A stretch of 64,000 nucleotides of DNA from GCA_000165345.1 CM000433.1:224001-288000, one strand, 5' to 3'. Shown: positions 1,419 through 54,065, counted from the stretch's first letter. The notes: a model not told the origin generated them from the letters alone. A program made the numbers and translations.

Positions 1419-4190
1419 TTAAATTAATCCTAAAAGTTGTTTGATTTCATTTGAAACAATAAAAGATTTTTTAATGCCATATATTAACTCTAGACAAATG
1501 ATTAATATCTCATTGCTTTTCTGATCCCAGAAAAAATGAGTTCTCCTAATATTGTTCCATTCAAACCCTTTATTTGGAGTAGCATTAATAAAGTCATTTA
1601 AAGCGTCTCTTTGAGATTGAAAATCCCCATTTAACAACTCAAATGCAATATAATGTATCCACGTATCACCTATCTTATTATCAATTTCCAGTGCACTTTT
1701 GAACCATTTTCTTGACTTATGAAAATCATTTTCTTTCCAAAATGATATTGCAATAGCAACCAATACATAAGGATCATTTCCACACTGTTCTAAAGCAATT
1801 AAAAATTTGGATTTTTGTTTTTGCTTTTGTTCAGTGAAAATGCTTTCTGCGTATAGCAATCCAGATTTTGGGCATTCTTTTAATGCTTTAGATAAAATTT
1901 GTGGGATAAACTCATTATTTCCTGCATTTTTTTCCAACTTAATTGTTTGCATCCACAATTCTGGTTGATTTTTGTTTTTTGAACGGGCCAAATCTAGAAA
2001 TGTTCTAGCTTTCTTCCAATTTTGCAAAAGCATTAATAATTCAATAGTAGAAAACCACAATTCTATTGAATCGCTGCAGAAGTTCAATCCTTCTTCGTAT
2101 ATTTTCAAGGCTTCATTGATCCGATCAGGAAAGGCTTTTCGATAAATAAATCCATATAAAAGCCATAAATTTGGAGAGCTTGGATATTCTTTAACAGACT
2201 CAGAGCAGTAGAGTATACACAAGTCATAGTTTTTTTGGTCATTTTCTAGCTTGATTGATTCAACCCAAATTTGTACCGATGGAGAGTTAGTTCTTTCTCT
2301 CTCTAAAATAATCTTGGCACGTTCTATTTCACCCTGAGATAGTTCTAATCTTGCTGCCTCCAATACTATTTCTTCTTTATCGTTTAAGCTCGAAGAATAT
2401 CCTTTCGACAGAATTAATCGTGCAATTTCGGCATTCCCATTTGCTGATTGATTTTGTGCGGCTTTCAACCAAAGTATTTGTTTGTCCGGACAATTCTTAA
2501 GTGATTTTTGTAAAACATGATCTACCTTTTCAAAGTTACCATACTTTTCTTCAAAATTAGCCCATTTTATCCAAAAATATTCTTTTGACTTAAACATATC
2601 TGCAGATGATTCAAACATAGCACGTGCAGATATTATATTATTTGATTTTATGAAGTTATCTATATAGGAAAAAACTTGATCATTAATTGCGTCATCATCA
2701 ATTCCAAGATTCCATGTATTTTTTATTATTGAAATACATGTATTTGAATAACCCTCTTTTTCGCATTCCCCTGCCCTATTTAACCAATCATCTCTTGAGT
2801 GTACAAACCTTTTAGCGGATAAATTTGAAATACAGCGTTTAACAATTAATTCGACTTTCTCAACTTTTCCATTTTGCTCTTCTAACTTTGCTGCTTCTAC
2901 CCAAATACCAGGAAATGTAGGCAATACTTTTCTTGCTTCATTTAGTATCTTTTGCGCATCGCAGTATTCGCTTAATCTTGCATATCTTAGCCAAAGCTCC
3001 TCAGATTGAGGTACACACTTTACAGCCTTTGATAGTAGAGCTTTTTCAGATTCATTATCAACAAGTGATATTGCTTCTTTCCAAAGTTTAATTGAATTTG
3101 GAATAAATTCAAGAGCTTTTTTAATTATTAGTAACTTTTTATTTTTATTTGTCTCTCTATTAGCTGCAACCATCCAAACTTTAGTTGAGTTTGGGATAAA
3201 TTTTATTGATTTCACAATTATTTTGTCTATTTGTTCTGGCTTTCCTAATCTAATAGCCTCCAGCCAAATATCTTCATTCTTTGGGCACATTTCACAACCT
3301 TTTGCAATAATTTCTCTTGCATGGGAAAGTCTACCTACGAACTCTTCGAATCTGGCTGCAGCTATCCAACCTGGAGAATGTTTAGGGTTTGTATTTACTA
3401 CTGATTTAAGTAATAGCCTTGCTTTTTTAATATCAGATAGATCCCCATTTAATTTAATACCAGCTGTGTTTAAAGAACTGAGATATTTTGATGGGTCAAT
3501 AACAGATTGTCCAGAAACACTGCCCATTGCCTTATCTAATTTTAAAGAAAGGATATTACCCTTAGCTGTTCCAAGCTCATTCAATTCAGTAGTAAGTTCA
3601 GTGTTTAATTCTGAATTAGAACAGTTTTTTTGGGTTAGAGTTTCAAACAAGTTCTTATGTGAAGATTGTATAATTTCATCTGGTACAGGCAAGAAAAGTT
3701 TTGGTTTCTTGTTCTTAATATAATAGTCTCCTGGTTCAGGAATTTGATCCCATTCTTCAATTTTTACGTCCCCCAAAGATTTCTTAAGACCTGAAAACTG
3801 CTCTTGTAAAGTCGGCCTATGTTCTCTTACCTTAAGAATCTCCTCTCTAATTTTCTTTTCTTTTTGTTTTTTTCTTCTGGTAGACAATTTCTCTTCAATC
3901 ATTTCATATATCGAATCTGCTTGCCGATCATCATCATCGTATTTAATATCATTAAATAGATGTTCATTAAACCCAGAAAATTTATCAAACTTGGTATCAG
4001 AATAATCACCAATATCAGCCTCAATTGTAATTGTTTGATCATCTCTACTGACTCCGCTTGCAAACCCAATAGCACCACGGCCTTTTCCAGGAACATAGTC
4101 TGGCGGTGGCTCGCCAAAAATATTATGTTTTTTTGAAATCTGTAGATCTGAAGAATTTATTCCAAGAGGATATGTATAAGAATTATTCAT
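1419..4190 (-). CDS. PRPF6: pre-mRNA-processing factor 6 (PRP6 / U5 snRNP 102 kDa), HAT/TPR repeat protein, 923 aa
   Basis: N-terminal PRP6 domain motif 'PPPDYVPGKGRGAIGFASGVSRDD', followed by about 15 HAT/TPR-like repeats (W..A..LE motifs). ATG at 4188-4190. Confidence 0.85.
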   Translation of the reverse strand: MNNSYTYPLGINSSDLQISKKHNIFGEPPPDYVPGKGRGAIGFASGVSRDDQTITIEADIGDYSDTKFDKFSGFNEHLFNDIKYDDDDRQADSIYEMIEEKLSTRRKKQKEKKIREEILKVREHRPTLQEQFSGLKKSLGDVKIEEWDQIPEPGDYYIKNKKPKLFLPVPDEIIQSSHKNLFETLTQKNCSNSELNTELTTELNELGTAKGNILSLKLDKAMGSVSGQSVIDPSKYLSSLNTAGIKLNGDLSDIKKARLLLKSVVNTNPKHSPGWIAAARFEEFVGRLSHAREIIAKGCEMCPKNEDIWLEAIRLGKPEQIDKIIVKSIKFIPNSTKVWMVAANRETNKNKKLLIIKKALEFIPNSIKLWKEAISLVDNESEKALLSKAVKCVPQSEELWLRYARLSEYCDAQKILNEARKVLPTFPGIWVEAAKLEEQNGKVEKVELIVKRCISNLSAKRFVHSRDDWLNRAGECEKEGYSNTCISIIKNTWNLGIDDDAINDQVFSYIDNFIKSNNIISARAMFESSADMFKSKEYFWIKWANFEEKYGNFEKVDHVLQKSLKNCPDKQILWLKAAQNQSANGNAEIARLILSKGYSSSLNDKEEIVLEAARLELSQGEIERAKIILERERTNSPSVQIWVESIKLENDQKNYDLCILYCSESVKEYPSSPNLWLLYGFIYRKAFPDRINEALKIYEEGLNFCSDSIELWFSTIELLMLLQNWKKARTFLDLARSKNKNQPELWMQTIKLEKNAGNNEFIPQILSKALKECPKSGLLYAESIFTEQKQKQKSKFLIALEQCGNDPYVLVAIAISFWKENDFHKSRKWFKSALEIDNKIGDTWIHYIAFELLNGDFQSQRDALNDFINATPNKGFEWNNIRRTHFFWDQKSNEILIICLELIYGIKKSFIVSNEIKQLLGLI

Positions 4191-4275
4191 TCTTACAAAT
4201 AAAATCTTTGCATTTAAATGTGTCTAATTTTTGTTTCTAAATTACCGCATTTTATATTTAGATGATAATATTCGC

Positions 4276-5066
4276 TTATTTTGTATTAAATTGCTCATTA
4301 ATCAATAGTTCCACATATGCCCTTGGACCTTCTATTATACCTTCCTTAGTTTTAATTATCCATTTCTCATCTTCAAGAAAAGAGATAGTTTTTTCTACTG
4401 AATGTTTTATCTTAACAATCAATTTAATAATTAATATTAAACTTACTTTCTTCTATGGAACAATTTTCAAAGGACTTTTGTGAGCATATTTCCTCAAATG
4501 GAATGGGGTAATCTTTTGAAAAAGTCAGAAGATTGATACGATTTAATATTTACTTACCTTTCTCAGTTATTAGTTTTAAAATATCTGTAATACCTATTAA
4601 TACCAATCCAAATTATGTAAAGTTTACATACCTTTTATTTCATTATAATCTTTAATTTTCTTAAGTCCAAGATTTAGAAATCCAAACTTTTCTTTGCTTA
4701 TGCTTTCTATGCCTTCATTAGAATGAACGTTACTCCTTAGACCAATGAAGTCGTTTTCGTTATTTCCCTTAGTGAATACAACTTCTAATAAAAGCGAACA
4801 TAATTCATCATTGCAGGCATTGACCAATTCAAAAATATTTTCAAAATCTCCTCTTGAGTTCTCCTAATACTGATGAGATTTTTATAATAAATATTATTAC
4901 TTACATTTAATACATTTAGGAAATTATTTGCATCTTTCACACTTGTTACCTAGCAAAAGTAAAGTGGTTTAATTGTCTAACAGAGGTAACTCACTTTTAC
5001 AAGAAGCATGCACTGAATAAATAAAGAGATAACTTTACTTCTTCCAGTTATTGTTCCAGAAATCAT
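4276..5066 (-). CDS. predicted 6-exon small gene (187 aa, unknown function) in an apparent intergenic gap
   Basis: Manual splice model on the minus strand. Exons: 5066..4995, 4949..4905 (45-nt micro-exon), 4863..4632, 4584..4558, 4512..4447, 4397..4276. All five introns are 41-49 nt with GTGAGT/GTAAGT/GTATGT donors and AG acceptors. Phases are consistent (the last four junctions are all phase 1) and the model ends at a TAA. Product: MISGTITGRSKVISLFIQCMLLVK|VTSVKDANNFLNVLN|ENSRGDFENIFELVNACNDELCSLLLEVVFTKGNNENDFIGLRSNVHSNEGIESISKEKFGFLNLGLKKIKDYNEIK|DILKLITEK|DYPIPFEEICSQKSFENCSIEE|IEKTISFLEDEKWIIKTKEGIIEGPRAYVELLINEQFNTK. This replaces the track ORFs 4624..4827(-), which is really a TTG-start fragment of exon 3, and 4262..4483(+). 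Confidence 0.4.
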
Positions 5067-5141
5067 TTTGTGAGAAGATATTAGCGCTCTAATAATTTCT
5101 ATATTTTATTATTAATCATTAATTGCTGGCTTTTGAATAAT

Positions 5142-5773
5142 ATGATTTCTGATCTTATAATTAAAGAAGAAGTTGGGCCAGGAAATGTCCCTAAGGCTCT
5201 ATTTATTTCATCAATAGAAGAATTTGTTGGCGATAGACCAGTTTATGGTATATTAGAAAATATCCAGTTACTTAATAGAAAATATAAAATAATGGAAAGT
5301 TCAATAAAGACTCAACAAGAATATCTTATTGCCAAGATTCCAGATATTGAATTGGCAATAGAATCGGTTTTTCAAAGAAAAAAATTGCTGGTACGTTAAT
5401 TGTTTAAAAATCTAGAACATTAATATTAATTTAGGAGAATAACTTGAATAAAAACGAATTATACTTTCCTGTTTCTGACAATTTATTTGCAAAATGTTCT
5501 TCTCCCCCGTCAAATACAATTTACCTTTGGTTAGGTGTAAGTTATTAAAGAATTATTTGATTATTTAACTCCTTTTAGGCAAATACAATATTAGAATATC
5601 CATTGGAAGAAGCGATTGAAGTGTTAAAGAGTAATCTTTCTACAGCTAAAAACACGATAAAACTATACCAGGAATCCTTAGATTTCATTAGGGAACAAAT
5701 AACCATTATGGATGTAAACACCGCGAGAGTTCATAACTACGGTGTTATGCAAAGAAAACAAAACAAAGTATAG
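5142..5773 (+). CDS. VBP1: prefoldin subunit 3 (VBP1/GIM2-like), 3 exons
   Basis: Exons 5142..5390, 5435..5536, 5579..5773. Introns 5391..5434 (GTACGT...TTTAG) and 5537..5578 (GTAAGT...TTTAG). The track ORF starts at a TTG (5133); the true ATG is at 5142 (MISDLIIKEE...). The spliced product '...ELYFPVSDNLFAKCSSPPSNTIYLWLG|ANTILEYPLEEAIEVLKSNLSTAKNTIKLYQESLDFIREQITIMDVNTARVHNYGVMQRKQNKV' is colinear with the prefoldin-3 core motif ('...DNLY.K...PP.......LWLGAN.MLEY...'). Confidence 0.75.
5391..5434 (+). other. spliceosomal intron 1 of prefoldin-3 (44 nt, GTACGT...AG)
   Basis: An in-frame stop follows immediately after 'GTACGT'. Splicing restores conserved prefoldin-3 sequence. Confidence 0.7.
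5537..5578 (+). other. spliceosomal intron 2 of prefoldin-3 (42 nt, GTAAGT...AG)
   Basis: Joins '...YLWLG' to 'ANTILEY...' in frame. Confidence 0.7.
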
Positions 5774-5926
5774 TTTATCACTCTTAAAATAGATAATTAA
5801 TACTTTTTCTAGGATTGGAAGAGTCACGCATTATTGCAAACTAACCTAGGAACAAACTAATTAGAAATAAATATCTAAAAGTTCATTCTCTCACATTAAA
5901 TTGACCGATGAATGTAATAATAAACT

Positions 5927-17047: not shown

Positions 17048-19159
17048 TTAATTATCCCCATTTTTTAATATTGTAGTTGTATTAATTGGGTTTGATGTTT
17101 TTATTTGTATTATTTTCTCGTTCTCAGGTAGCAGAGTTGTATTTTGTGCAGCACAATTCAATTGCGGAACAAACTTTAATTCATTTGAAAATAAAGAATT
17201 TTGAGAATTGTTTTTACTCAAATTAGCATTAGCATTATTTGATTGACATACACCTGGAGAAATTCCAAACGGAACTGCCATTTCTGAGTGAATTTGAGAA
17301 TTTAAAGGGAAAAGGGTTAAATTTGAATCGTTTTTTTGCTTATTAATAATTCCAGAGTTATTTAATAAACTTTGTGTTTCGTATGACCCCATATGATTTA
17401 ATGGGATATAATATGGATACATAGATGAGTTAGTATTGAGTATTAAATATGGACTTGATGTTCCAGTTGGGTGCAAAATTGTAGGAAGCTGAACTTGAGA
17501 AAAGTTTCCAAGAGCAATTGATTGATTAATTCCACAAATGTTTTGTATTGAACTCCCTATTAATGAGCTATTTCTCAAAGATTCAAATAAATCTTGTTGT
17601 ATATTTTGACTTTTAGCGCTATTTTTTTCACCAGTAATAATTTGAGACTCCATGTCGACATTAACTATACTGTTTTTATGGGTGCCTCCATTATCTTCAA
17701 AATTGTTAATTGTTGCTTTAACCATTCTTGCATGCGCCATAGTAGGAGTGTCACTGCAATCAATAGATATAGGAGTTGTTCCAGCGCTTGAGCAATTACT
17801 CAAGTTATCTGACATTTGAATAGATGTTGTATTTTGGGAGGATGAAAGCATATTAAAGGCTTTTAACCTTTCTATGGTAAGGCTTGTATCAAGCTTCTTA
17901 GTATTGTCTAGATAGTTTATGAAGTCATGAAGATATGATTGTTGCTGCGCTAAAGAACTAATTACTGGGTTGAAAGTGACCGGAGAATTTTGCTGTATCA
18001 TGAATTGTGAAATCGGTACCTGCGAATTTATTTTTGAAGCGAACTGTAATTGAATTTTGCTCAAATCTAACTGTGATGATAGTGACTCAGATGAGCTACA
18101 TGATTGAAGCTGCTCAAGATGACATCTTTCATCCTTATCAAAAACAGAAGTTTTATTTAATGGTGTTGATTCTTCTGAATTATCGTTTCTATTATTGTAC
18201 TTCAGAATAGGAGCTGACAAAAAAAAGTTATGTGTTCCGTTTGTTCGTGCATATTCTAGAAATCTTTGCATGACAGTGATTAAAGTTTTTTCGGCCATCT
18301 CAGCTGTAACGTCATTTAATTCATGATCTTTTGATACTTGTAGTTTCCAAACAAGCCTAACTGATTGTAAATGATCACAGAAAACTACGTAATCTTGAAG
18401 TGCAAACTGATGGCGATAAGAATAATGCCAGTTCCTATTTAAAAAACTTGTTTGATTGCTATGCTTGGCACAATAAGTCTGTTGAGGGCATAAAGTTGCA
18501 GCAAAATAATTACAATCATCTACAACATCACCATATGCTTCGTAAACACACCTTGGAACCATTAAATTACCACCTTTTGGTGGTAGGTACAATATTTTCC
18601 ATTGCCCAACAATTTTTTCTCTTTTGTCAGCTTTTGGGATACAGTCACAAGAAGGACAAAGAGTCCACCTTTTCTTTCTACCTGTAAAGCCAACGGTAAT
18701 AACTGTTCGATCCATTGTGTCGTTAGATAATCTAGTGCTACGCTTACTAAAGTCGAAAATATAACCATCGACTTCATCTTGATGTGTAACAGCATACCTT
18801 CTTAATCCAATAGTTCCGGGCTCATAATGAGAAATGATAACATTTCTTTCAGTCTCATTAGAAACTTTTTCGAACAATTCTTTTTCAAAACTTATATTCA
18901 TAGAGTCAGCAAAACTACAGAATGAAGGTACATGACGTGGTTTCTGTCTATGAACTGGAGTTTTCGATGCATAAGGTTTACGTATAATCGTAGTTCCATT
19001 ATTTGTATTCATTCTGAGATTATTTTGCATTCCTGGATTTGAAACTGTTTCATGCATAAGCTGATTACGTTTAAAAGATAATTCCTTTATTTCATTAATT
19101 GACTCACTTGTATCCGTCTCTTTAATTTCAATTATTGGCGTTTTTTTAATTTCAAACAT
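17048..19159 (-). CDS. paralog A of a head-to-head gene pair: nuclear/DNA-binding-like protein with a conserved ~230-aa Cys/His-containing domain plus Asn/Ser/Gln-rich tail, 703 aa
   Basis: Shares with 20398..22713 the blocks 'KPRHVP', 'GTIGLRR', 'TFRG..KRW..CP', 'YFAATLCPQQTY' and a following ~80-aa region. Low-complexity C-terminal half. ATG at 19157-19159. Confidence 0.6.
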   Translation of the reverse strand: MFEIKKTPIIEIKETDTSESINEIKELSFKRNQLMHETVSNPGMQNNLRMNTNNGTTIIRKPYASKTPVHRQKPRHVPSFCSFADSMNISFEKELFEKVSNETERNVIISHYEPGTIGLRRYAVTHQDEVDGYIFDFSKRSTRLSNDTMDRTVITVGFTGRKKRWTLCPSCDCIPKADKREKIVGQWKILYLPPKGGNLMVPRCVYEAYGDVVDDCNYFAATLCPQQTYCAKHSNQTSFLNRNWHYSYRHQFALQDYVVFCDHLQSVRLVWKLQVSKDHELNDVTAEMAEKTLITVMQRFLEYARTNGTHNFFLSAPILKYNNRNDNSEESTPLNKTSVFDKDERCHLEQLQSCSSSESLSSQLDLSKIQLQFASKINSQVPISQFMIQQNSPVTFNPVISSLAQQQSYLHDFINYLDNTKKLDTSLTIERLKAFNMLSSSQNTTSIQMSDNLSNCSSAGTTPISIDCSDTPTMAHARMVKATINNFEDNGGTHKNSIVNVDMESQIITGEKNSAKSQNIQQDLFESLRNSSLIGSSIQNICGINQSIALGNFSQVQLPTILHPTGTSSPYLILNTNSSMYPYYIPLNHMGSYETQSLLNNSGIINKQKNDSNLTLFPLNSQIHSEMAVPFGISPGVCQSNNANANLSKNNSQNSLFSNELKFVPQLNCAAQNTTLLPENEKIIQIKTSNPINTTTILKNGDN

Positions 19160-20397
19160 TTTTACAACTTATTAAACGGCTTTATTTTAAATAATTTCAC
19201 TGAGAACTATCTTAATAAATACCTGAAGTTGTTAAAAAGTAGTTGTAATAATAATTTTGTCCCAGTGATTCAGATATTGATGATTCTTTTAAATAACTTA
19301 ATAAATTTTTTTTCATCTAATATAGCATTGAATTTGTAAGATACAAAGTTTTAATAAATGTTATGAGTGTCCACGTTTATCGTATGAAAGTATTCCAAAG
19401 ATATTTATTTAAATATAAATATTGTATATGCGCATATTTTTTTTAATGGAATATATATATTTTGTAATATTGTTTTAATCTATTTTCATAGACCACAATG
19501 TACCTCTAATACAACTATTGGATATAGACACTCAAATCCTATTGATTAATATATTATTATCATAAGTCCTTGCACCCAAAAGTTATTGATATAATAAGTT
19601 TTGTATTTTTGTCATCACAAGATAATAATGTGTGATGCATGCATGATTTTTGCATTTAGTGTCTACTTAGTGTGCATTTATTTGAGCGCTAATTTTTATA
19701 GGTATTAATTGTGGATTATAAAATGAGAATATAAAGCAATTATATACAATTTTTAATCTTTCACAAAACTATTACAAAGAAGCAAACACATAAATAGCTT
19801 ATGTAGTTATTAATATATTTACGGGTTTAGTCTAATAAAATTTTCATTAATTGAATTTTTAAAATAAACGACATTCCATAAAATTGCATGTAAATTTTTT
19901 TAGTAATTTACCGGTAATTAGCATATATTCATGCTTGCATGAATATACCGCCCCCACGTTAGGCGCCAACTTGCATCAATAACATACGTGTGCTAGAAAG
20001 ATATTAAAGGCAAGATTCCGCTAAAAATAGAGATATCATTATCTGCCGACATTTGTGTGAACAACTGCACGCATGTCAGGTGGCTGCTTATCCCACAAAA
20101 TAAATAATAATTAAGTATCGTATAGAGTACCATCTATAACTTTAGCTAGTGGCGAAAGTGGAAAATCTAATAATTTAAAATATTTATTAAAATAATAAAG
20201 ATATCGTCTAAAATAAAGTAAAATATAGAATTAAATACAAAAACAATAAATAAAAATTAAAACCCATTTTTTTAAAATTATAATGCAACAAGAAATTAAC
20301 CAATAAAGAAAGAGAATTAAATTACAAAAGCGTTTTTACGAAATTAGGCGATAATTGGATTATAATTTCGACATTTTCGCATTTTGCGTCTATCAAC
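19160..20397. promoter_or_regulatory. 1.24 kb bidirectional regulatory region between divergent paralogs, with a TGCATGCA/TGCATG motif cluster and an E2F-like GGCGCCAA box
   Basis: TGCATGCATG at 19636-19645. TTGCATT/GTGCAT follow nearby. TGCATG at 19885-19890. CATGCTTGCATG at 19930-19942. GGCGCCAA at 19962-19969. GCACGCATG at about 20068. Perfect palindrome ATATGCGCATAT at 19426-19437. This is by far the longest non-coding stretch in the window. Confidence 0.4.
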
Positions 20398-22713
20398 ATG
20401 TCGGATTTTCACTGTAATTCAGTGGACAGTGATATAATTTATGAGTATGAAAATATTTCGGTGAACCAAATGATTGGAGTTAGGAATGGGTTTCGAAGCC
20501 AGGATAATATACATCGAAGCGATGTAGAATTAAGTAAACAAGGTTACAATGGCTTAAAAGATGGGATAGTAAGTAATTCATCAGAAGTCAACGCATATAA
20601 CAGAAGTGTGAATCCCAATAGGCGTGGAGGCAAGTTGAAGCCAAGACATGTTCCTGATTTCGTATTAATATCGCCTGAAGATGTAGATAGATTACTCTCT
20701 ACAGTAACGACTTTAGATGAAAGAAAGACAATAATGAACAATTATGAGCTTGGGACTATTGTATTAAGAAGGCTATGCATAAGCGAAAGTAGCGAAATCA
20801 AAGCTTTTATGGACTCGATTCAAATGAGAACAACAGGAAAAGCATTAGAAAGCCATGAACGGAATATAATTTGCTTGACTTTTAGAGGGCAGCCTAAGAG
20901 GTGGGTGTTTTGTCCATGCAGAAGCTGTTTATTTAAAGGTAAGGCACATGATAAATTAATGGGCCATTTTAAAATTATGGAGCATGATACTCAGACAAAC
21001 AAATTTCAAATCTCTAAGAACGTTTATGATTCATATGGCGTTTTCATGGCTTCTTGTGGCTATTTTGCTGCCACGTTTTGCCCCCAACAAAATTATTCTT
21101 CGCATAAAGTATTTGTCGGCCCTACAATTTCAGATTTGAAAGGCAGGATTCATGATCGATATATATTATTCATCAATGACTCAAAAGTTATACAAATGGC
21201 ATGGAGAAGAAAACAGAATTATTCCTTTGAATGCGAGGAATTACTTAGTAATGTAATGTCCAAGTTGATAGTTTGTGGGAAATCAGGTCATGTACAGATG
21301 ATAAATCAGTTGAGTAAAGGATACTCTGGACTAATATCTCTTCCACTTAAATTACGTTTCCATTGCGAAAACTTAGAAAAACAGCCTAATTCGATTAGTT
21401 CGGTAAATGAATTTAGCAAAGGGGGAGTTGGCTTAGTCAATAAAAAGAACAAGAGAAAAATGAGCAAGAGGAATATGGAAGATTGGGATATTATAAATTC
21501 AGATAAATTTTTGAATGATGCAAATGAACTTCAGAATGCTTATAGCAAAGGTATGGATCAGAGTCTGACATCCAAATCTTATTCTTTTCCAAATTCTCCA
21601 ATAGTAAGGGTTCAAAATAACCAATATTATAATTCAGATAGCAATTCTTTAACTCCAAGATGTACAAAACAGTACATTTCAGAATCAGGGCATGATATTG
21701 ATGGTGAGACTCTAACTTCTAATAGATATGGCTGTATTGTTGGCGATGTATCTACTGCATCAGCAACACCTATTGCAGAAAGCGCAGATTGCATTATTAA
21801 CAAGCAGTTTAATAATTATAATTCAAAGATTTTGGATTGCATTCAAACAATAAATAAAAGCGGGTTATCATTAAACGATATGAGTAGAGGCATTTATGCA
21901 GGTAGCCCGTTGGATCCAAATTCCTTCATTTCAAAAGTTCCAATTCCATCTTCCTTCTTCAACAATATAGGCCAAAATAAGATTTTGATGAATAACATTG
22001 ACGCAAATAAGGCAGATAGATACGGGAATAAATCAAATAGCAAAAACTGGCTTGGATCATTAGAAAATGAAAATGAAAACCCAAATATAAAACAATTAAA
22101 AGAGAACTATTTGTATGGGGATTTTTCACAGGGTAATGGAATTTTTAGATCACATTTTCAACAGAATTTCATAAATGAAGGAGCTCACTTCAATTTTAAT
22201 CCTTTGGCATTTTCTTCTGATTCCGCAACCAACCCAATTCTACAAAATGAGACAATTGAAGAGGAATCCATAAACAAGCAAAATTTTAACGGTGGATTTA
22301 TAATAAATGGTATCGCTGCAAACCAATCAATCTCTTTATATAGGCAAGTTTTTTCTACGAATGAAATCACAACTCCAAATTCTACGCTTGAAATTTCATC
22401 ACCCATACAACAGATTCAACATTCATTTATTTCAGATGGAATGGGTCAAGAACAGAACAGCCAAATTAATATTATTCAACAAACGCAAAATATCGTTAAC
22501 CCTGGAACATATAGTGATGTATTTGGAGAAGATGTAACACAATGCGCTTCATGCGAGCATTGCTCAATTGGTGGGTATCCTTATTATTGCAATTGCTATA
22601 AAATGCCATCTGAATCAGCAGCTAGCTCTAATGTTATCGATGTTAATGATACTGCAGGAGTCTTTCAGTTGAATAATCAATTTATTCATGCTTCACATGA
22701 GGTGGATACATAG
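20398..22713 (+). CDS. paralog B of the head-to-head gene pair (same conserved domain as 17048..19159), 771 aa
   Basis: 'KPRHVPDF...GTIVLRRL...CLTFRGQPKRWVFCPCRSC...YFAATFCPQQNY' is colinear with paralog A. Asn/Ser/Gln-rich tail; a C-terminal Cys cluster 'CASCEHCSIGGYPYYCNCY'. ATG at 20398. Confidence 0.6.
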   Translation: MSDFHCNSVDSDIIYEYENISVNQMIGVRNGFRSQDNIHRSDVELSKQGYNGLKDGIVSNSSEVNAYNRSVNPNRRGGKLKPRHVPDFVLISPEDVDRLLSTVTTLDERKTIMNNYELGTIVLRRLCISESSEIKAFMDSIQMRTTGKALESHERNIICLTFRGQPKRWVFCPCRSCLFKGKAHDKLMGHFKIMEHDTQTNKFQISKNVYDSYGVFMASCGYFAATFCPQQNYSSHKVFVGPTISDLKGRIHDRYILFINDSKVIQMAWRRKQNYSFECEELLSNVMSKLIVCGKSGHVQMINQLSKGYSGLISLPLKLRFHCENLEKQPNSISSVNEFSKGGVGLVNKKNKRKMSKRNMEDWDIINSDKFLNDANELQNAYSKGMDQSLTSKSYSFPNSPIVRVQNNQYYNSDSNSLTPRCTKQYISESGHDIDGETLTSNRYGCIVGDVSTASATPIAESADCIINKQFNNYNSKILDCIQTINKSGLSLNDMSRGIYAGSPLDPNSFISKVPIPSSFFNNIGQNKILMNNIDANKADRYGNKSNSKNWLGSLENENENPNIKQLKENYLYGDFSQGNGIFRSHFQQNFINEGAHFNFNPLAFSSDSATNPILQNETIEEESINKQNFNGGFIINGIAANQSISLYRQVFSTNEITTPNSTLEISSPIQQIQHSFISDGMGQEQNSQINIIQQTQNIVNPGTYSDVFGEDVTQCASCEHCSIGGYPYYCNCYKMPSESAASSNVIDVNDTAGVFQLNNQFIHASHEVDT

Positions 22714-51245: not shown

Positions 51246-54065
51246 TCACTCATTAGATTGAGAACTATTTTTATCATTGTTTAATGAGGGCGGTGAAGAA
51301 TAACCAAATTTGACGGAGTCGGAAGTATCTTCGTTAGGAACAAACTTAGAGAATAAAGGCGCAACTTCCGTACCATTTAAGGGGGATAAAGCGAATTTGC
51401 CTTGAGAAGTGCCATTTGTGAGTATTAAGCTTGAACTAATGTATCTTTCATTATTTAAATTTGTAGTTTGATTCATTGTGTTTGAGCTTCCAGGCGCTCT
51501 ATCAAGCTGATCGGATTTATCTTTTATATAATTAGGATTAGATTCAGTTGAATTTAATGAATTGATATTGGTTCCATTGTATTGTGATTGACTTGAGTTC
51601 GAGACATTATTTATAACGTTAGCTGGTGTAGTTGTAGTTGTAGTGTACTTTTTGAAAATGTGTTGATTTTGTAATAAGTCTGTTTGCTTTTCTGACCTTT
51701 TATCTGTTGCATTATTAGATTGATTGATTCTATTTTTTGCATCAGAGTTGTTATCGTAAGTTTTATTCGTTTCCTTAGTCGCTTCAGGAGAAGTAGTATT
51801 TAATAACTTTTTTTGGGCTGGAATAATTAAATTTGAGTCATCATTTAACTGGGTGTTAGTAGGCTGTAATCTATTATTATTTTGAGATAAAAGCATTAAA
51901 GTATTTGAAAGCGAGCTGTTAATGCTAGCTGTGGTGGCGGTTGTTGTTGTAGTGGTAGTGGTAGTAGTTGTGGTAGTAGTTGTGGTAGTAGTTGTGGTAG
52001 TAGTTGTGGTAGTGGTAGTAGTAGTAGTAGTTGTTGTTGTTGTAGACGTTGTATAATATGGCTTAAAGAATTCCTTTTTTGGTAGGAAAGAAATATTGTT
52101 TAGATCTATTTGGTTAAAAAGAGATGATTTACTAGCTTTTTGAGAACTGTTTGTATTCTCTCTGAGCCTCCTATTCACAGATGCAATTTTGCCAACATTG
52201 GAAGCGTTCAAAAATAGGTTTGCTTCAGTAGTAGTAGTGGTTGTTGTGGTAGTAGTAGTTGTGGTAGTAGTAGTTGTTGTGGTAGTAGTAGTAGTAGTAG
52301 TTGTTGTTGTTGTTGTCGTAGTTGTAGTTGTTGTGGTAGTAGTTGTTGTGGTAGTAGTAGTTGTTGTGGTAGTTGTAGTAGTTGTGGTAGTTGTAGTAGT
52401 TGTGGTAGTAGTAGTTGTTGTGTAATATGGCTTAAAGAATTCCTTTTTTGGTAGGAAAGGAATATTGTTTAGATCCATTGGATTTATAAATGTTGATTTT
52501 ACAGTTTCTTGTGGGCTATTAGGACTNNNTNNNTANNNTNNNNNTTNTNNGANGCANTAGNANNANNNNNNGATANNNNNANNNNTNNNNNNAGNATNNN
52601 CNNNNNGNNGNNNTNGNNNNNGNNNNNGTANTNNNTNGNTNNNTNNNTAGNGGTGAANNGAGNANTGGTANTNGTGGTAGTAGNTGTNNTTGNGGNACGG
52701 TTGTAGNANTTNTNGTGGTGAGNNGTNNNANNTNNANNAGTAGNNNNGGTAGTANNNNNNNTTGNANNGTNTNGNANTANTAANGTTNNGNTANNGAANT
52801 ANNANTAGNTNTNNTAGTNNTAGTAGTAGTAGTAGTTGTTGTTGTTGTTGTGGTANTAGTAGGTAGTTGNTGNNGTTGTGGNAGTAGTAGTTGTNGTGGT
52901 GGTAGNAGTTGTTGNTGTTGTGGTAGTTGTAGTAGTTGTTGTGGTAGNTGTAGTAGTTGTGGTAGTAGTTGTAGTAGTAGTTGTAGTTGTGTAATATGGC
53001 TTAAATGGGATTCAAAAATTTTTCTTTCATTTGGAAAAATGGATTGTTTAAATCTATNGGAAGAAAAAAGTTTGGTTTTGCAATTTCCTGCGATGAATTT
53101 GAATTGATTTGTGAAACTTCATTGCTTGCTGTGATACCTAAACTTGGCGAGTTCAAAGCTAGACTTTCTGCAGTGGTAGTAGTTGTGGTAGTTGTTGTTG
53201 TTGTGGTGGTAGTAGTTGTGGTAGTGGTAGTTGTTGTTGTTGTGGTAGTGGTAGTNGTNGTTGTTGTGGTAGTGGTAGTTGTAGTAGTTGTTGTTGTGGT
53301 AGTAGTAGTAGTTGTTGTNGTNGTNGTTGTTGTGGTAGTGTAGTGGNTAGTTGTTGTAGTGTGGTGGGTAGTTGTGNTGGTAGTAGTAGTTGTGGTAGTG
53401 GTAGTAGTAGTTGTGGTAGTGGTAGTAGTAGTTGTAGTTGTTGTTGTGGTGGTAGTAGTAGTAGTTGTTGTTGTTGTCGTGGTTGTGGTAGTTGTAGTTG
53501 TTGTTGTGGTGGTAGTAGTAGTTGTAGTAGTTGTAGTTGTGGTTGTGGTAGTTGTAGTTGTTGTGGTAGTTGTTGTGGTAGTTGTAGTTGTAGTTGTTGT
53601 TGTGGTTGTGGTAGTAGTAGTTGTTGTGGTTGTGGTGGTAGTTGTTGTTGTGGTAGTTGTTGTCACTGGTCTAAATGGTCTAAAGAATTGTTCTTTCATT
53701 TGGAAAAATGGATGGCTTAAATCCATTGGATTAAAGAACGACGAGGACTTCACAGTCGAATCGTTTCCCAGTAACACTTTAGAACTATCCAAATTAGTGC
53801 TATTTGTATACTCAGTAGATAAAGGCATTCCGGGCAAATCGATGCCACCTATGCCAGTTAATATACCTTCAGAAGCATTTTTACTGTTTGTTACGTAGGA
53901 TTCATCTATATTACTTGGTGTGATTTGATTACCTCCTAACTCACTATTCCATGCCTCTGATTTATTTTCAGAGTATGTGATGGTATTAACTTCACATAAA
54001 GCATACTTTGAAAATTGAAGCAGAAGAAAGAAAAATAAAGTCGAAAAAACCTGTAGAAAATTCAT
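51246..54065 (-). CDS. secreted mucin-like glycoprotein with four poly-threonine tracts separated by a repeated aromatic/basic module; spans a low-quality N-containing patch and one apparent frameshift
   Basis: Signal peptide 'MNFLQVFSTLFFFLLLQFSKYALC' (ATG 54063-54065). Modules read 'DLSHPFFQMKEQFFRPFRPV-(T)n', 'IDLNNPFFQMKEKFLNPI', 'DLNNIPFLPKKEFFKPYY-(T)n' and 'IDLNNISFLPKKEFFKPYYTTS(T)n'. Ser/Asn/Thr-rich C-terminus. The track ORFs 53001..54065 and 51246..52478 are parts of one gene. Confidence 0.6.
51932..52052 (-). repeat. poly-Thr (ACN)n coding tandem repeat, tract 4
   Basis: (GTAGTAGTTGTG)n-type trinucleotide array on the plus strand. Confidence 0.8.
52228..52424 (-). repeat. poly-Thr (ACN)n coding tandem repeat, tract 3
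   Basis: GTN triplet array about 200 bp long. Confidence 0.8.
52527..52856. other. degenerate, N-interspersed consensus inside the poly-Thr region (unresolved or collapsed repeat)
   Basis: Single bases alternate with runs of n, but the GTN periodicity is still visible ('gtggtagtagntgtnnttgngg'). Confidence 0.7.
52857..52990 (-). repeat. poly-Thr (ACN)n coding tandem repeat, tract 2 (continues into the N patch)
   Basis: GTN triplet array with scattered n. Confidence 0.7.
53170..53670 (-). repeat. poly-Thr (ACN)n coding tandem repeat, tract 1 (~165 codons)
   Basis: About 500 bp of uninterrupted GTN triplets, with a few n. Confidence 0.8.

Follow-up and report, generated by a model that had tools for sequence, protein, structure and literature searches.

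The part of Cryptosporidium parvum chromosome 5 analyzed here (GCA_000165345.1 CM000433.1:224001-288000; 64,000 nucleotides [nt], approximately 31% G+C, referred to as the window) carries a compact six-exon gene on the minus strand between the genes encoding PRP6 and a prefoldin. Our analysis showed that this gene is a genuine protein-coding gene and that its 187-amino-acid (aa) product is probably a very divergent Nse1, a KITE (kleisin-interacting tandem winged-helix) subunit of the SMC5/6 DNA-repair complex, that has no RING domain. An earlier reading of the window, made from the sequence alone (the sequence-only reading), had proposed the gene and found no family to name for its product, which now has a well-supported Nse1/KITE assignment. 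The gene is already known and annotated and is not a new gene. Its identity as a RING-less Nse1, however, appears to be new, being absent from the names given in the source records and from the literature that we searched; searches by the identifiers of the gene found no paper.

Exact protein matches placed the locus. The minus-strand open reading frame (ORF) at 1419-4190 (923 aa) is identical to the C. parvum Iowa II Prp6 protein (EAK88146.1), and two further ORFs of the window match C. parvum proteins exactly. The gene order is PRP6 (minus strand, start at 4190), the six-exon gene (minus strand), and the prefoldin gene (plus strand, ATG at 5142). The six-exon gene runs from an ATG at 5066-5064 to a TAA at 4278-4276, and its five GT-AG introns are packed within 791 nt (Table 1). 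Without splicing, the locus is rich in stop codons; the spliced coding sequence of 564 nt encodes a product identical to GenBank entries QOY41528.1 and WRK32239.1 (CPATCC_0022740 and cpbgf_500923), deposited as an "uncharacterized protein." The gene model of the sequence-only reading, whose junction numbers we took as the last and first exon bases, thus proved correct to the residue. Inspection of the sequence bore out its five introns of 41-49 nt with GTGAGT, GTAAGT, or GTATGT donors and AG acceptors, its TAA stop, and its explanation of the 67-aa ORF at 4624..4827 as exon 3 read from an internal TTG. Two details had to be amended. The last four junctions had all been described as phase 1, but the intron phases are, in order, 0, 0, 1, 1, and 1, so that only three introns are of phase 1. 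The 45-nt micro-exon is present but is not the sole one, as a second micro-exon of 27 nt lies downstream of it.

One explanation to be weighed was that the model joins chance GT...AG pairs in a noncoding spacer, given that the DNA is AT rich and that the region holds 241 candidate GT..AG pairs. However, the donors are clustered far beyond expectation. In the 64-kb window, the donor hexamer GT[AG][AT]GT has a background of 0.43-0.44 per kb per strand, whereas the six-exon gene has five such hexamers within approximately 0.8 kb, all of them on the minus strand (Poisson P of approximately 3 × 10−5). This cluster is the densest in the 64 kb, with every other 800-nt window containing three or fewer. 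Furthermore, the frame, the splice sites, and the amino acid sequence are conserved throughout the genus, and the product is foldable into two domains. Chance pairing is effectively refuted by these comparative data, and we give it next to no weight.

For the comparison, we used the orthologous loci of C. meleagridis, chipmunk genotype I, C. ubiquitum, C. canis, C. felis, C. bovis, and C. muris together with that of C. parvum. All seven other species kept the order of the divergent prefoldin gene, the six-exon gene, and PRP6. In the eight-species DNA alignment, the GT and AG dinucleotides of the introns were invariant (10 of 10), and when the splice sites were projected onto each species, the ORF was intact throughout, at 179-188 aa. 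The two micro-exons measured exactly 45 nt (exon 2) and 27 nt (exon 4) in all eight species. Exon length changes were multiples of 3, as seen in exon 3, where the only indels between species were of this kind (232 or 235 nt). Intron lengths (41-63 nt), in contrast, did not change in multiples of 3; intron 1, for example, varied between 43 and 49 nt around its invariant GT and AG. Among the four closest species, 36, 27, and 94 variable sites fell at codon positions 1, 2, and 3, respectively, and the intron interiors were 91-100% variable across the eight species. Conservation limited to exon 3, the outcome that the sequence-only reading had named as speaking against its gene, was thus not what we observed, as all splice sites and both micro-exons are kept in the eight species. 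Because of this comparison, the gene model is settled independently of RNA data.

The deposited annotations of the locus are at variance with each other. Across the species and the C. parvum assemblies, the deposited products measure 107, 117, 118, 119, 141, 156, 163, 179, 187, and 188 aa; GenBank also contains orthologues from C. hominis UdeA01 (CUV06082.1) and from C. tyzzeri. The shorter models originate from skipping of one or both micro-exons (exon 2 is skipped in two deposited models, as is exon 4) or from reading through intron 3. Truncated or mis-spliced orthologue models are those of C. muris (CMU_040970; 156 aa deposited, 180 aa corrected), C. bovis (141 and 179 aa), C. felis (117 and 181 aa), C. 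canis (118 and 181 aa), and C. ubiquitum (107 and 181 aa). It could be argued from the several GenBank annotations that carry such models, and from the micro-exon lengths, which are multiples of 3 so that the frame survives skipping, that the true mRNA lacks one or both micro-exons (163- and 179-aa models) or ends after exon 3 (107- to 119-aa models). We regard this as very improbable. The 45- and 27-nt lengths, the flanking GT and AG dinucleotides, and the freedom from stop codons hold in all eight species, up to and including C. muris. Variation in exon 2 is concentrated at third codon positions (6, 7, and 14 variable sites at positions 1, 2, and 3 across the eight species), although exon 4, with its 27 nt, is too short to reveal a bias (8, 4, and 8). 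Both micro-exons contribute residues to helices of the winged-helix domains that are predicted with confidence; in the AlphaFold2 model described below, the exon 2 residues have predicted local distance difference test (pLDDT) values of 78-91. The truncated models, on the other hand, finish by reading through intron 3, and the six-exon protein is the version found in the IOWA-ATCC annotation curated with RNA sequencing (RNA-seq) data. Collectively, the eight-species comparison speaks for six exons rather than for any of the shorter models.

Published genome data provide the context for this exon density. A 2015 paper on the genome of C. hominis UdeA01 also re-annotated C. parvum Iowa, for which 74 genes backed by cDNA or RNA-seq data were added. 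It reported introns in approximately 10.8% of C. parvum genes, 2-10 exons (mean, 2.6) in intron-containing genes, and a mean intron length of approximately 99 nt. In the 2022 long-read re-annotation of C. parvum IOWA-ATCC (CPATCC_ identifiers), the introns were called 100% RNA-seq supported. As this annotation includes the identical protein, it provides indirect transcript evidence for the five junctions. Compared with other C. parvum genes, approximately 90% of which are intron-less, five introns and two micro-exons place the six-exon gene at the dense end, and its introns (41-49 nt) fall below the reported mean length. Short GT-AG introns and GTAAGT-like donors are features that it has in common with other multi-intron genes of C. 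parvum. The density is therefore unusual, as the sequence-only reading had held, but not as atypical for the genome as it had claimed, since it falls within the published range of exons. Similarly, a gene hidden from ORF-based annotation is an apt description with respect to the 2004-style annotation, from which the gene is absent, but no longer with respect to GenBank, which now contains it (e.g., CUV06082.1 from the 2015 assembly).

One line of evidence on the identity of the product came from its predicted structure. An AlphaFold2 run on a shallow alignment of the eight near-identical proteins reached a pLDDT of 39.6 and was not used for the fold search. The second run was based on Cryptosporidium database sequences only, several of them truncated, and the resulting model is for this reason not biased toward Nse1. 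This model (mean pLDDT of 70.5, predicted template modeling score of 0.45) consists of two winged helices, at approximately residues 8-83 and 109-185, with a linker of low confidence between them. In the Foldseek search, a fold search being one of the checks that had been suggested for this product, ranks 1 to 3 were taken by human, Xenopus, and yeast Nse1 (E values of 1.2 × 10−5, 5.9 × 10−5, and 9.8 × 10−3, respectively), and human and Xenopus Nse1 were the only matches with E values of 1 × 10−3 or lower. The best structural matches were thus the Nse1/NSMCE1 proteins of animals and fungi (PDB 5hvq_C and 9lwi_F from human, 7dg2_A from Xenopus, and 7qcd_D and 7ymd_B from yeast), and weaker ones were chains of the ScpB (6juv_A and 1t6s_A), Wadjet JetABC, and MukBEF complexes. 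It should be noted that the template modeling scores of these matches were only approximately 0.4 and that winged helices are common. Nevertheless, the solved fold closest to the predicted tandem winged-helix product is that of Nse1.

Sequence profiles pointed in the same direction. The Pfam family SMC_Nse1 (PF07574) matched the product below threshold (16.8 bits, the cut-off being 23.3 bits; E value of 0.0064), with residues 137-178, encoded by exons 5 and 6, aligned to profile positions 152-194. This subthreshold match was the top or joint-top family in five of the eight orthologues (best E value of 0.0035). We then compared profiles by hhalign, using 15 vertebrate NSMCE1 sequences as the Nse1 profile; the human sequence was checked against PDB 9lwi_F, and the best 120 matches to human NSMCE1 were all from tetrapods. 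The profile of the eight orthologues aligned to this profile over 146 columns with a score of 35.9 (P of 1.2 × 10−4, probability of 55%), and query residues 15-179 were collinear with template residues 18-178, that is, with the whole N-terminal domain of Nse1. As controls, 200 column shuffles gave a mean score of 14 (standard deviation of 2.8, maximum of 25.4), and reversed profiles scored 12.5 and 14.0. Furthermore, when a hidden Markov model of the vertebrate Nse1 N-terminal domain was run against 186 sequences, of which 178 were decoy ORFs from the window, all eight orthologues were among the top 11, with scores of 19.9 bits for C. muris and 18.4 bits for C. bovis. Taken together, the profiles lend moderate, not decisive, support to homology with the N-terminal domain of Nse1. 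Short Pfam matches to Casc1_N, Swi5, and DUF5382_N were rejected, as they lay outside any consistent region and had no structural support.

The product thus shares with Nse1 (PF07574 plus PF08746) two tandem winged helices in the same order, a collinear N-terminal domain, and a 'KW(L/I)...G..(G/P)RA..E(L/M)' segment that ends the second winged helix. It differs in its identity of only approximately 11-18%, in its length (187 aa versus 230-340 aa), and in the absence of the C4HC3 RING and, with it, of the ubiquitin-ligase module and of the contribution that the RING is reported to make to Nse1/3/4. In canonical Nse1, this variant RING, which is regarded as a eukaryotic innovation, follows the second winged helix. 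No C-terminal variant RING (PF08746) was present at the locus in any of the eight species: the C. parvum ORF ends at residue 187, and a conserved cysteine pattern is lacking, with only two cysteines conserved genus-wide. There is also no room for a RING-encoding exon, because the stop codon lies 85 nt from the PRP6 ATG and the start codon 75 nt from the prefoldin ATG, and the other seven species are alike in this respect. This lack of space and the two conserved cysteines led us to regard the product as the KITE module only.

The composition of the complex in the genus bears on this assignment. Smc5 and Smc6 have been reported for C. parvum/hominis. In the published table of a 2025 survey, C. 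muris RN66 is scored 1 (present) for SMC5, SMC6, Nse4, Nse3, and Nse2 and 0 (absent) for Nse1; the same survey found Nse1 in Toxoplasma and Plasmodium and the core subunits otherwise co-occurring consistently. That Nse3 is scored as present in C. muris and Nse1 is not fits the assignment of the six-exon product to Nse1, and the C. muris protein may have been overlooked because it is divergent and was deposited as a truncated model.

As winged helices are a ubiquitous fold, the main alternative is that the product is a tandem winged-helix protein specific to this lineage and without any relation to SMC5/6, such as a small DNA- or protein-binding factor that resembles Nse1 in fold only. Several observations make this unlikely. 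Nse1 came out on top by methods that differ in kind (the Pfam models, hhalign, and two structure searches), the alignment to Nse1 is collinear over both domains, the three leading Foldseek ranks are occupied by the Nse1 of three distant species, and the genus is otherwise without a detectable Nse1 while keeping the remainder of the complex.

A KITE of a different type would also account for the predicted fold. Nse3/MAGE (PDB 4v0p, 7uoa, and 7qcd_E; PF01454) is a KITE paralogue that is likewise built of tandem winged helices, is RING-less like the six-exon product, and has a GPRA-type motif in common with it. We nevertheless consider it quite improbable that the product is an Nse3/MAGE-type KITE or another KITE paralogue. 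The hhalign match to a MAGE profile of two human type I sequences (MAGE-A3 and MAGE-A4; verified) was limited to 11 columns around the GPRA motif, whereas 153 columns aligned with an Nse1 profile of equal depth (two sequences). Pfam MAGE gave no match at E values up to 1 in any of the eight orthologues, Nse1 scored above Nse3 in both structure searches, and Nse3, unlike Nse1, is already accounted for in C. muris. Prokaryotic and archaeal KITEs (ScpB, MukE, JetB, and the archaeal Nse1/3-like kites) are likewise small, RING-less, tandem winged-helix partners of kleisins, but they scored much more weakly than eukaryotic Nse1.

Several points weigh against the identification of the product as Nse1. 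Searches of 5.8 billion clustered and 1.84 billion representative proteins returned no homologue outside Cryptosporidium, apart from one spurious epimerase, and HMMER profile searches of the PDB sequences did not find Nse1. The Pfam match remained below its cut-off, and the hhalign probability of just over one-half was obtained with an Nse1 profile restricted to vertebrates. The published absence of Nse1 covers C. muris and not C. parvum itself. Finally, according to work in yeast, the RING stabilizes Nse1/3/4, and an Nse1 without it contradicts the usual architecture. The PDB matches that the HMMER searches did return (ADP-heptose epimerase, myosin-I, and Fur) were weak and unrelated and were rejected.

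With these points taken into account, a very divergent, RING-less Nse1 remains the probable identity of the six-exon product. On balance, we also lean toward the view that the SMC5/6 complex of Cryptosporidium runs, genus-wide, with a natural minimal Nse1 of two winged helices and approximately 180 aa. The lack of the RING is best read as a secondary loss and not as an ancestral state, because the host genome is eukaryotic and keeps SMC5, SMC6, Nse4, Nse3, and Nse2. By analogy with the Nse1 of yeast, frog, and human, the product would pair with Nse3. Its second winged helix would bind the middle of the Nse4 kleisin, as that of Nse1 does in other organisms, and it would assist in assembling the DNA clamp at the SMC5/SMC6 heads and in tuning the ATPase cycle. 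Being without a RING, it would not itself act as a ubiquitin ligase.

If correct, this assignment would fill the only gap in the reported core SMC5/6 set of the genus with a eukaryotic Nse1 that has been pared down to the KITE module, and the 'absence' of Nse1 in surveys of the genus would be explained by extreme divergence combined with the mis-annotation of an intron-dense gene. It would further imply that a eukaryotic SMC5/6 complex can function without the variant RING of Nse1 and without any ubiquitin-ligase activity of Nse1, which bears on the question of whether the RING is needed structurally or as a ubiquitin ligase only. The comparison of eight species also shows which of the conflicting annotations is the right model, including the 45-nt and 27-nt micro-exons, and the gene offers a concrete target for tagging or knockdown in a parasite whose genome-maintenance factors are poorly known.

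Table 1. Exons, introns, and flanking spacers of the six-exon gene (positions counted from the first nucleotide of the window)
Feature	Position	Strand	Description
Exon 1	4995..5066	-	72 nt, codons 1-24, ends in phase 0; donor kept in 8 species
Intron 1	4950..4994	-	45 nt, GTGAGT...TAG, phase 0
Exon 2 (micro-exon)	4905..4949	-	45 nt, 15 codons, VTSVKDANNFLNVLN; predicted to encode helix 2 of the first winged helix
Intron 2	4864..4904	-	41 nt, GTAAGT...TAG, phase 0
Exon 3	4632..4863	-	232 nt; predicted remainder of winged helix A, disordered linker, and beginning of winged helix B
Intron 3	4585..4631	-	47 nt, GTATGT...CAG, phase 1
Exon 4 (micro-exon)	4558..4584	-	27 nt, DILKLITEK; predicted to contribute to helix 1 of winged helix B
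Intron 4	4513..4557	-	45 nt, GTAAGT...AAG, phase 1
Exon 5	4447..4512	-	66 nt in all species except C. muris (69 nt)
Intron 5	4398..4446	-	49 nt, GTAAGT...CAG, phase 1
Exon 6	4276..4397	-	122 nt including TAA; predicted wing and last helix of winged helix B
Divergent spacer to prefoldin	5067..5141	.	75 nt; conserved AGCGCT palindrome at 5083-5088
Spacer from TAA to PRP6 ATG (4190)	4191..4275	-	85 nt; conserved AAATGCGGTAA at 4242-4252

Within the product of exon 6, the GPRAY.EL motif is invariant throughout the genus. The 75-nt divergent spacer is presumably a promoter shared by the six-exon gene and the prefoldin gene. According to the DNA alignment, both the AGCGCT palindrome of this spacer and the AAATGCGGTAA element upstream of PRP6 are kept in the majority, if not all, of the closely related intestinal species, and they represent possible promoter elements.

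The prefoldin gene (5142-5926, plus strand) has at least one short intron: its first ORF comprises 88 aa, and a donor-like hexamer is located at 5537. Its orthologues measure 149-184 aa (179-184 aa in six of seven) and are encoded by spans of approximately 635-650 nt. As the ORF, the donor, and the orthologue sizes imply splicing, the prefoldin gene and the six-exon gene both contain introns, in contrast to approximately 90% of the genes of this genome.

The spacer between PRP6 and the prefoldin gene had been taken for the only large 'intergenic' gap in the window. This is not the case, as the 1,238 nt at 19160-20397 are also free of ORFs and have no cluster of donors. This divergent spacer (25% G+C, one donor-like hexamer) is unusually long for the genome and, judging from these features, is probably truly intergenic. 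The genes that flank it, at 17048-19159 (minus strand) and 20398-22713 (plus strand), resemble paralogues and share the motifs KPRHVP.F, ELGTI.LRR, and CPQQ.Y. No Rfam family reached its gathering score anywhere in the 64-kb window. Finally, the region at 51943-53663 consists of long arrays of tandem repeats based on GTT, GTA, and GTG (periods of 3-60, GC skew of +0.64). Its minus strand is rich in ACN codons, which suggests a poly-threonine, mucin-like coding repeat, and it may correspond to the chromosome 5 tandem-repeat protein of the 2022 re-annotation paper.
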